Shown here in pieces: positions 1-669 of a DNA stretch of 669 nucleotides. The DNA comes from Escherichia coli. GTDB lineage: Bacteria > Pseudomonadota > Gammaproteobacteria > Enterobacterales > Enterobacteriaceae. Within the stretch, counting starts at the first letter, position 1. The number at the start of each line of letters is the position of its first letter. The DNA is taken from assembly GCF_003334255.1 (NCBI RefSeq), contig NZ_QOWU01000199.1. One strand, 5' to 3'. Position numbers and translations under genes: made by a program. Under the pieces are notes generated by a model, which saw nothing but the letters and a program-made list of their open reading frames with translations, searched no databases and was not told the origin of the DNA.

Positions 1-63
1 GACATCAGTACCCGTGATGAAGGCGGGGGCGGAAAGGTCGTGGTTATCGGGCGGCAGGGGTAA
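1..63 (+). CDS. I: Tail assembly protein, lambda gpI-like; 3' end only (5'-partial, upstream of window)
   Basis: Frame +1 reads DISTRDEGGGGKVVVIGRQG then TAA at 61..63. The Gly-rich stretch followed by VVVIGR matches my recollection of the lambda gpI C-terminus, and the position immediately upstream of a J homolog fits lambda gene order (K-I-J). Only 20 codons are visible, so the call leans on synteny plus a short motif. Confidence 0.7.
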   Translation, partial: DISTRDEGGGGKVVVIGRQG

Positions 64-109
64 AAAGAATAAAAAAATCCCGCAGTGATCGCGGACAGGA
101 ACTGCGGGA
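64..109 (-). terminator. Rho-independent terminator-like hairpin oriented for the minus strand
   Basis: Perfect inverted repeat CCCGCAGT (79..86) / ACTGCGGG (101..108), extendable by a T:A pair at 78/109, with a 14-nt loop (87..100). On the minus strand the stem is followed directly by ATTTTTTTATTCTTTTT (complement of 78..64). On the plus strand no U-tract follows the stem, so it is not a plus-strand terminator. Confidence 0.5.
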
Positions 110-168
110 GAGTTACGAAGATTAAGTGTAAGGAATTATTCTTATGTCACGACAAAAAAAATTAACGC
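64..168 (-). ncRNA. Candidate ~100-nt small RNA in the I–J spacer, antisense to the tail operon (hypothetical)
   Basis: Bounded by the candidate minus-strand promoter and the minus-strand terminator. The minus strand has no ORF longer than a few codons across 110..305. The region is AT-rich (about one-third GC by hand count over 111..240) against GC-rich flanking coding sequence. I do not recognise it as a named sRNA. Confidence 0.2.
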
Positions 169-174
169 AGCGAA

Positions 175-202
175 ATTATCAGCGCCACAGTCAGTTTGTG
201 AA
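175..202 (-). promoter_or_regulatory. Candidate sigma70 promoter on the minus strand (-35 TTCACA, 16-nt spacer, -10 GATAAT)
   Basis: Minus-strand sequence reads TTCACA (202..197), then a 16-nt spacer, then GATAAT (180..175); each hexamer matches consensus at 5 of 6 positions. AT-rich context. The predicted start near 167..169 would give a transcript ending at the terminator at 64..109. Motif match only, no expression data. Confidence 0.2.
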
Positions 203-292
203 AATGTGAAGATATTCAGAATTTTTATTCAGTCATGATACAGGCATCCTCCGGGGTGCCTGTTGTTTTTGTGAGTGAACAATTATCACGGT

Positions 293-299
293 AAGAGGT
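293..299 (+). promoter_or_regulatory. Shine-Dalgarno / ribosome binding site for the J-like CDS
   Basis: AAGAGGT at 293..299 lies 6 nt upstream of the ATG at 306..308. The in-between ATG at 301..303 is followed directly by TAA and is not the start. Confidence 0.6.
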
Positions 300-305
300 G
301 ATGTA

Positions 306-669
306 ATGGGCAAAGGCGGCGGCAGGGCGCACACACCGCGCGAGGCGAAGGATAATCTCAAATCCACGCAGATGATGAGTGTGATTGATGCGATTGGTGA
401 GGGACCGATAGAAGGTCCGGTGAAGGGACTGCAGAGTATTCTGGTGAACAAAACCCCGCTGACGGACACGGACGGTAATCCCGTGATACACGGTGTGACC
501 GCCGTCTGGCGTGCCGGGGAGCAGGAGCAGACACCACCGGAAGGCTTTGAGTCCTCCGGAGCTGAAACTGTACTGGGTGTGGAAGTGACGAAGGCAAAAC
601 CGGTGACACGCACCATTACGTCAGCGAACATTGACCGCCTGCGGGTGACCTTCGGGGTGCAGTCACTGG
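306..669 (+). CDS. J: Tail tip / host specificity protein, lambda gpJ-like; N-terminal 121 codons (3'-partial, continues beyond window)
   Basis: ATG at 306 with SD upstream; open frame +3 to the window end. Translation MGKGGGRAHTPREAKDNLKSTQMMSVIDAIGEGPIEGPVKGLQSILVNKTPLTDTDGNPVIHGVTAVWRAGEQEQTPPEGFESSGAETVLGVEVTKAKPVTRTITSANIDRLRVTFGVQSL is colinear with the lambda J N-terminus as I recall it (MGKGSSKGHTPREAKDNLKSTQLLSVIDAISEGPIEGPVDGL…RAGEQEQTPPEGFESSG…TRTITSANIDRLRFTFGVQ), with long identical blocks. Codon usage is GC-rich and enterobacterial in character. Confidence 0.9.
   Translation, partial: MGKGGGRAHTPREAKDNLKSTQMMSVIDAIGEGPIEGPVKGLQSILVNKTPLTDTDGNPVIHGVTAVWRAGEQEQTPPEGFESSGAETVLGVEVTKAKPVTRTITSANIDRLRVTFGVQSL

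Follow-up and report, generated by a model that had tools for sequence, protein, structure and literature searches.

The stretch of DNA analysed here, called the window, comprises 669 nucleotides (nt) of Escherichia coli contig NZ_QOWU01000199.1 (assembly GCF_003334255.1) and spans the junction between two tail genes resembling I and J of phage lambda. The expanded I–J spacer is very probably a non-coding moron, that is, a gene for an Hfq-binding small RNA (sRNA) of the PasB family that lies on the minus strand and runs antisense to the operon of tail genes. This reading is carried by the homology, position and strand of the copy, its promoter and terminator signals, its conserved core and its distribution. 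A class of prophage sRNAs that includes PasB is already known, and the window is an extension of that class, not a new kind of system. New here are the probable identity of PasB with EcOnc22, EcOnc23 and EcOnc24 (EcOnc22-24), the allelic cassette with a shared core and A-R-N tract (adenine, purine, any base), and the size of the family.

PasB was described in prophage PP6 of enteropathogenic E. coli (EPEC) O127:H6 E2348/69 as an RNA of 83 nt on the minus strand (NC_011601.1, 1466343 to 1466261; Pearl Mizrahi et al. 2021, PMC8550237, Table S6). It lies between E2348C_1436 and E2348C_1437, is antisense to both, and was confirmed by northern blot (probe AATCCCGCAGTGATCGCGGAGCT) and by RIL-seq (ligation and sequencing of interacting RNAs) (PMC8550237). 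In an hfq deletion its log2 fold change was −6.8 and −2.4; its level was higher under the non-activating condition, and it was abundant in uninduced cultures (PMC8550237). The summary row for PasB gives 37 RIL-seq interactions, with many core and accessory mRNAs, and PasB is apparently the second RNA in about 99–100% of its chimeras (PMC8550237; the meanings of the interaction and chimera columns were taken from the legend of Table S6). Zhu, Shabalina and Storz (2026) reported 1158 PasB hits, usually one per genome, with a host range of 'Escherichia and Shigella' and no known function, and proposed as the seed a conserved single-stranded region upstream of the terminator (bioRxiv 10.64898/2026.05.13.724894).

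The RefSeq annotation of E2348/69 places the end of a tail assembly gene at 1466255 and the start of gpJ at 1466496, which makes the PasB locus an I–J junction with a 240-bp spacer, and the PasB interval opens 6 nt past the I stop. This spacer aligned end to end with that of the window, PasB corresponding to window ~153 to 69 on the minus strand, and 20 of the 23 bases of the northern probe match window 76-95. Identity between the two loci was 95% in gene I, 90% over 64-94, 54% over 95-155, 93% over 156-228 and 90% over 229-305; the window RNA and PasB are identical at 80 of 106 aligned positions (75.5%). The two copies share the I–J locus, the strand opposite to the tail genes, the promoter block (in the window its own promoter, by consensus match only), the terminator stem, the U7 tail, the core motif within a conserved single-stranded region upstream of the terminator, and a 3' end beside the I stop, 6–7 nt from it. 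The window RNA differs from PasB in its 5' body, its A-R-N tract and its terminator loop.

Features of the window are collected in Table 1. The sRNA promoter, found by consensus scan, is of the sigma-70 type (TTCACA-16-GATAAT, window 202-175) and reads towards gene I. The predicted 98-nt RNA folds with the terminator hairpin at its 3' end, leaving ~58 nt before the hairpin unpaired in the centroid structure, and the terminator is of the form that marks the PasB family, with perfect 9-bp arms and U7. The A8 run on the plus strand at window 156-163 (U8 in the RNA) varies in length from 6 to 9 among near-identical copies, and the published 5' end of PasB falls just past this U-run near the 5' end of the RNA.

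Table 1. Features located in the 669-nt window; promoter, transcript and seed entries are predictions.
Feature	Position	Strand	Sequence and basis
sRNA module, mosaic unit extra relative to lambda (promoter, RNA body, terminator)	64-228	-	partial genome matches; alignment
−35 hexamer TTCACA	197-202	-	promoter scan; 10 of 12 matches together with −10, 16-nt spacer
−10 hexamer GATAAT	175-180	-	promoter scan; TATAAT in most other copies
Predicted primary transcript, PasB-family sRNA, 98 nt	71-168	-	5'-GCGUUAAUUUUUUUUGUCGUGACAUAAGAAUAAUUCCUUACACUUAAUCUUCGUAACUCUCCCGCAG...CUGCGGGAUUUUUUU-3'; promoter and PasB mapping
A-R-N tract AAGAAUAAU, candidate Hfq distal-face site	135-143	-	A-R-N triplet count across family RNAs
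Conserved single-stranded core UUCCUUACACUUAAUCUUCGU, candidate seed	115-135	-	alignment conservation; unpaired in centroid fold
Candidate seed segment UUCCUUACACUUAAUCUUCG	135-116	-	part of conserved core
Intrinsic terminator hairpin	78-109	-	9-bp arms UCCCGCAGU / ACUGCGGGA at 109-101 and 86-78; inverted repeat, 100% complementary
U7 tail of sRNA terminator	71-77	-	ATTTTTTTAT after the arms; ends 7 nt from I stop codon
Terminator-like hairpin upstream of J	240-273	+	ACAGGCAUCC-UCCG-GGGUGCCUGU, then UGUUUUUGUG; terminator scan
3' end of lambda gpI-like tail tip assembly gene	1-63	+	last 20 codons, ...TRDEGGGGKVVVIGRQG; stop TAA 61-63
5' part of gpJ-like tail tip / host specificity gene	306-669	+	ATG 306, opening MGKGGGRAHTPREAKDNLK...
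Shine-Dalgarno AAGAGG of J	293-298	+	7 nt before ATG; read from sequence

Copies of the module were collected from IMG/VR with two scans, one for the terminator pattern and one for the promoter-block pattern, which gave 193 module copies. These copies contain 65 distinct upstream-plus-RNA sequences and 50 distinct RNAs, 90–103 nt long. These RNAs comprise a window type, an E2348 type, a Sakai type and others, plus hybrids. With the −10 tally re-registered by one base and the −35 register read from the upstream sequences, the −10 hexamer was TATAAT in 37, AATAAT in 16, TATCAT in 6 and GATAAT in 1 of 62 unique upstream sequences, the −35 candidate at the matching offset was the same in 40 of the 61 scored, and both hexamers stand at a fixed distance from the conserved RNA start GCGUUA across alleles. 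Kept across the 50 unique RNAs were this start, the stem CCCGCAG/CUGCGGG, the U-tail and the core AAYUCCUUAnnnUUAAUCUUCRU, which within the RNA body is the block that varies least. Classes differ from one another in the 5' body and in the loop of the terminator. At least three consecutive A-R-N triplets stand just 5' of the core in 46 of the 50 unique RNAs (mean in shuffled sequences, 1.3–1.8 such triplets). The sequence of the tract differs between alleles, and its pattern is that of a putative Hfq distal-face site. Pairing in the terminator stem was counted on a stated structure across 26 alleles, instead of with RNAalifold: 84% of the cells were paired, and two pairs had changed from G-C to A-U on both sides. 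The PasB variants in print are a few nucleotides apart, PasB-2 being C27A (bioRxiv 10.64898/2026.05.13.724894), and the commonest E2348-type sequence in the IMG/VR set differs from PasB only at C27A, matching PasB-2. Judged by sequence comparison, the window copy is a separate, common and undescribed allele of the PasB family.

A second set of RNAs was reported by Tree et al. (2014), in which EcOnc22, EcOnc23 and EcOnc24 of the enterohaemorrhagic E. coli (EHEC) O157:H7 Sakai are homologous to one another (PMC4104026, Table S2). A northern blot showed EcOnc22 at ~85 nt, and loss of hfq destabilised it; all three were crosslinked to Hfq, and they lie in prophages Sp15, Sp14 and Sp11, respectively, on the strand opposite I and J (PMC4104026). 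The function of EcOnc22 was given as unknown in a 2021 review. In NC_002695.2 all three coordinates fall inside 240-bp I–J spacers homologous to that of the window. At face value the coordinates of Table S2 would place the peaks 22–84 nt from the J start, over the region of the plus-strand hairpin and upstream of the promoter of the sRNA, a placement that was rejected by calibration of the coordinate shift. AgvB1 is listed in Table S2 at 1941783-1941835 and the Rfam AgvB match lies at 1941920-1941981 in NC_002695.2, while the homologous pair EcOnc42/EcOnc21 gives a shift of 135–138 bp; the EcOnc coordinates are displaced relative to NC_002695.2 by ~+137 bp (about +135 to +146) at 1.94 Mb and beyond. 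A shift of 128–146 bp puts all three peaks in predicted 91-nt RNAs (2902836-2902926, 2676767-2676857 and 2166817-2166907). Because the shifted peaks fall inside these predicted RNAs, EcOnc22-24 were taken to be Sakai alleles of the PasB-family RNA. The two are probably the same, an equivalence left unstated in the source papers, in which the PasB note field of Table S6 is blank. EcOnc22-24 represent a third allele class, ~74% identical to the window RNA. The size of ~83 nt, the Hfq dependence and the mRNA chimeras are established for the E2348/69 allele and presumably extend to the Sakai allele. A tie between PasB and EcOnc22-24 would merge the EPEC RIL-seq literature and the EHEC literature on Hfq crosslinking and analysis of cDNA (CRAC) on one RNA carried by Shiga toxin 1 (Stx1) phages. 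Any reuse of Table S2 of PMC4104026 on NC_002695.2 misplaces sRNAs.

With the spacer as query, 6268 matches were obtained in 1890 of 5426 complete E. coli genomes, together with matches to 147 phage records, mostly Stx-converting phages. Window-type RNAs were found at 1749 places in 1254 of these genomes, with one match, in E. coli 2013C-3033, that is 100% identical to the window RNA; E2348-type RNAs were found at 999 places in 956 genomes. The window-type allele is thereby at least as common as the published PasB type. Among the matches listed, no annotated feature lay under the genome matches to the spacer or to the RNAs. Since the 999 E2348-type places come near the published 1158, the published 'PasB variants' probably comprise only the E2348 class, and the window-type class was, to judge from the counts, probably left out of the published PasB tally. 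Because the window type is so common, BLAST-based 'PasB' counts made with the E2348/69 sequence probably understate the family. A contig scan with the 17-mer ATAAAAAAATCCCGCAG, a poor query, returned chance matches in unrelated phyla, real similarity being confined, among the matches listed, to two Escherichia albertii contigs.

Several points weigh against assigning the window to this family as an active sRNA gene. Expression has been detected for homologues, from which that of the window allele is extrapolated. A scan of the window against Rfam 15 with a permissive E-value gave no family at threshold (best MicX, 21 bits against a threshold of 75; sub-threshold matches inside J were archaeal snoRNA noise), and the same database gave no family at threshold on the Sakai Sp15 spacer. 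The window −10 is GATAAT, against TATAAT in most copies. The published 5' end of PasB (window ~153) lies 15 nt downstream of the promoter-predicted start (168), which implies either processing of the RNA or an error in one of the two estimates. The terminator shows little covariation, since most of its pairs are invariant, and RNAalifold, run on a MAFFT alignment of the 26 alleles, found no more than 3 pairs, the stem being misaligned through differences in loop length. The link to EcOnc22-24 depends on a coordinate shift that was itself deduced, and neither PasB nor EcOnc22-24 has a known target or function in the literature.

The following working is proposed. In a lysogen, in which the late operon is silent, the sRNA would be made from its own promoter as a transcript of ~98 nt, perhaps trimmed to ~83 nt, that would end at the intrinsic terminator 7 nt from the I stop. 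The 5' two-thirds of the RNA would be single-stranded and present the A-R-N tract followed by the YUCCUU...AAUCUUC core, taken as the seed. Hfq would hold the RNA through the U-tail and the A-R-N tract, and the RNA would pair in trans with mRNAs of host and prophage, probably at a Shine-Dalgarno-like UAAGGAG. For the window allele we infer expression, seed identity and the way in which targets are repressed. The core and the A-R-N tract that the alleles share provide a concrete candidate seed for mutation.

An RNA acting mainly in cis, with any trans role secondary, is a rather unlikely alternative. Such an RNA, perfectly complementary to ~98 nt of the late I–J mRNA, would pair with it at induction, with RNase III cleavage or interference between convergent transcripts, and would tune J expression or tail-tip stoichiometry. 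In every case the sRNA gene lies antisense to the late operon and at the I–J junction, its promoter faces oncoming late transcription, and the family travels with the I–J genes through many prophages; a cis role is also compatible with the working proposed above. The RIL-seq chimeras of PasB with many core and accessory mRNAs and its abundance in uninduced cultures, in which the late operon is off, speak for action in trans instead. A short conserved core in a variable body is what a trans-acting seed predicts, and it speaks against a cis role because any sequence already complements its own locus. A wider synthesis of both roles, which as a whole we consider doubtful, would make PasB, EcOnc22-24 and the window RNA one large, unrecognised family of I–J sRNAs, present in about one-third of complete E. 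coli genomes and often multicopy. The family would be built as a cassette in which a fixed promoter, start, core and terminator surround a hypervariable body, with an A-R-N tract in every allele as in class II Hfq sRNAs. It would serve as a trans regulator in the lysogen and as a perfect antisense brake on the I–J late transcript at induction, linking host physiology to the supply of the tail-tip/host-range protein.

A preliminary description of the window had placed the gpI-like stop at 61-63, the gpJ-like start at 306 and a gap of 242 bp between them (window 64-305), all of which is exact on the sequence. Its figure of a few tens of bp for the lambda junction agrees with the lambda coordinates, which give 60 bp (I end 15444, J start 15505). 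Its hand count of roughly 31% guanine plus cytosine (GC) over 111-240, between GC-rich flanks, was matched by the GC profile: 31.5% over that interval and 39.3% over 64-305, against about 60% in the coding flanks (61.9% over 1-63; 59.1% over 306-669). The spacer had been read there as a moron or an acquired regulatory module, and ~165 bp extra relative to lambda (64-228), with a promoter and an intrinsic terminator of their own, bear this out. That reading is refined here in three respects: the cargo is a non-coding sRNA gene and no protein gene, it is placed on the minus strand, and only 64-228 was added, 229-305 not. Similar spacers devoid of transcription signals throughout the lambdoid phages, or a comparably long spacer in lambda itself, had been named as what would count against an insertion; the spacer is indeed widespread, but it carries such signals, and that of lambda is short.

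A hairpin precedes J on the plus strand. In the window this hairpin (240-263, then TGTTTTTGTG) folds at −20.9 kcal/mol, z = −4.0. In lambda a GC-rich plus-strand hairpin at 15454-15489 (positions 255-290 of locus L002), unannotated in the record, is followed by UUUUGUCAUUU and folds at −21 kcal/mol, z = −2.8. The lambda I–J spacer thus resembles window 229-305 in having a plus-strand hairpin, a U-rich tail and then the J Shine-Dalgarno sequence, and differs from the window in having no minus-strand promoter, RNA body or terminator in its 60 bp. Since the lambda spacer has such a hairpin, 229-305 was taken as its positional equivalent and 64-228 as added. The hairpin may stop polymerase not modified by Q before J, or may protect the 3' end of the upstream message. 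That the whole spacer is mainly a plus-strand signal of this sort for transcription or RNA stability (terminator, attenuator or 3'-protective hairpin before J), its extra length being neutral filler or a recombination scar, appears quite unlikely. The strength of the hairpin and its U-tract at 240-273, the non-homologous hairpins with U-tracts that lambda and the 342-bp spacer type have at the corresponding place, and one stem pair that runs C-G / U-G / U-A in a compensatory series among copies fit such a signal. It accounts for 229-305 only, however, about the length of the whole lambda spacer, and the extra 165 bp (64-228) have their own opposite promoter, terminator and conserved core and correspond to a detected RNA. 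A scan for promoters on the plus strand found none from which a short sense RNA could run to the 240-273 hairpin.

The preferred reading, an added sRNA gene, is also consistent with how the junction is assembled in other prophages. The junction comparison that the preliminary description had proposed delimited the module at 64-228 and found matches to the spacer in 1890 of the 5426 complete genomes; many of these span only spacer positions 1-165, which equal window 64-228. In IMG/VR the sRNA module is joined to either of two downstream segments: one of the window type, in which the hairpin stands at 240-263 and J opens with its ATG ~235 nt past the terminator pattern, and one unrelated and longer, which has another strong hairpin (AAAACCCCGGTATCTGCTGATACCGGGGTTTCTCTTT) and its J ATG at ~336 nt. 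By these sequence comparisons, module 64-228 is a separate mosaic unit. Spacer lengths were taken from 76 IMG/VR loci whose J N-terminus is 97–99% identical, and were mostly 240–241 bp (n = 12), 341–343 bp (n = 44) or 851–852 bp (n = 14). Spacer lengths of 66 and 198 bp given by an open reading frame (ORF) heuristic were rejected as short, lambda-like spacers: at these loci gene I and the RNA body are replaced, as far as the promoter block, by unrelated coding sequence. The 851–852-bp type (14 of 76) has an antisense SodC gene in place of the sRNA promoter block (NCBIfam PRK10290, 218 bits; cut-off 165). The presence of antisense sodC at the same site argues that the I–J junction is a genuine moron site. 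A junction that is tight in lambda but reaches four times that length in many E. coli prophages and Stx phages would thus house an sRNA gene that annotation pipelines skip.

Further variants of the junction were seen in the same material. In IMG/VR locus L319 the sodC gene, coding for a Cu,Zn superoxide dismutase, lies at ~840-1360 on the minus strand, between I (68-649) and J (1501 onwards); in the 851–852-bp loci the sRNA body and terminator still adjoin gene I. In the 341–343-bp type (L004, on the reverse strand, and 43 other loci) the sRNA module is kept and 229-305 is swapped for an unrelated segment of ~180 bp, whose hairpin AAAACCCCGGTATCTGCTGATACCGGGGTTTCTCTTT is very strong and bidirectional-looking (−29.9 kcal/mol, z = −7.2). 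Two copies of the promoter block stand 160–470 bp apart in L266 (8302, 8772), L270 (1686, 1865) and L284 (9949, 10128), and at least once a second PasB-like gene, which belongs to another allele class, follows directly, so that tandem sRNA genes can share a junction. The block GTGAAAATGTGAAGATATTCAGAA (window 198-221) is preceded in L327, in L362 and in two unique upstream sequences by unrelated coding sequence and not by the sRNA body and gene I, which points to a recurrent recombination breakpoint at the promoter block.

A moron in the sense of Juhala et al. (2000), as cited in PMC4104026, is extra DNA with its own promoter and terminator that is expressed from the prophage. The window module is extra DNA between genes that are adjacent in lambda and has promoter and terminator signals of its own. 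Expressibility from a repressed prophage is suggested by these signals, and, by analogy, by the expression of the EPEC and EHEC homologues in uninduced cultures. The module resembles classical lambdoid morons such as prophage sodC in its extra DNA, lower GC and own promoter and terminator; their cargo is a protein and that of the window module an RNA. With no conserved ORF in place of the usual protein-coding gene, it is a moron only in an extended, non-coding sense. AgvB, AsxR and the other sRNAs of the PR' moron site are, like the window RNA, prophage-encoded and short, with intrinsic terminators, and bound by Hfq (here by way of the homologues) (PMC4104026). They share with the window family conserved positions in lambdoid prophages and an allelic make-up with a conserved 3' and a variable 5' part (PMC4104026). 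Their site lies downstream of Q/PR', whereas the window sRNA lies in the tail module, and there is no sequence similarity between them: the Rfam models of AgvB and AsxR gave no match to the window. Those of STnc100 and Esr41 gave none at threshold. AgvB and AsxR function as sRNA sponges ('anti-sRNAs'); no sign of a sponge role was seen for the window RNA.

It is highly improbable that the selected element is instead a small protein made from the late operon in the plus-strand frame of window 85-165 (MKINVKELF... in other alleles), the minus-strand RNA being incidental. An ATG with GGGAG or GGGGA before the start in 35 of 64 unique alleles, a common N-terminus (M/T)KI(N/K)x(K/M/R)EL(F/L) and a ratio of non-synonymous to synonymous polymorphism (pN/pS) of 0.43 in frame, against 1.0–1.4 in the other plus-strand frames, would suit a peptide. 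The minus-strand frame that shares the wobble position, however, is equally low (0.33), three-base periodicity, strong in the A-R-N tract alone (0.07/0.26/0.67), is weak in the core (0.18/0.24/0.31), and the minus-strand RNA has been detected experimentally in homologues. ACG or ACA replaces the ATG in the window and in 28 other unique alleles, and this window-type class is the commonest in genomes; within the window the frame has a single start, GTG at 85, which lies in the terminator stem and lacks a Shine-Dalgarno sequence; and changes in the length of the A-run shift the frame, so that the peptides range from 8 to more than 40 residues. ORFs 85-165 and 144-209 were rejected as coding genes for the window, neither start codon nor length being conserved. 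A type I toxin–antitoxin system was likewise rejected, since it calls for a conserved small hydrophobic ORF and these two plus-strand ORFs are basic and hydrophilic.

The genes on either side are those of a lambdoid tail module. Frame 1 of window 1-63 reads as a gpI-like C-terminus, ...VVVIGRQG, followed by TAA. In near-identical loci the RefSeq names are 'tail assembly protein' or 'tail tip assembly protein I' for the first gene and 'phage attachment tail tip protein J' for the second; relatives of gpJ are encoded by 474 IMG/VR stretches, the best at 97–99% identity. Immediately before J, window 301-308 (ATGTAATG) holds a start–stop pair (ATG 301-303, TAA 304-306) whose last base is also the first of the J start codon (306-308). 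The spacing of AAGAGG at 293-298 fits the J ATG and not the upstream ATG at 301-303, and the loop of a small hairpin predicted at about 284-304 contains this Shine-Dalgarno sequence.

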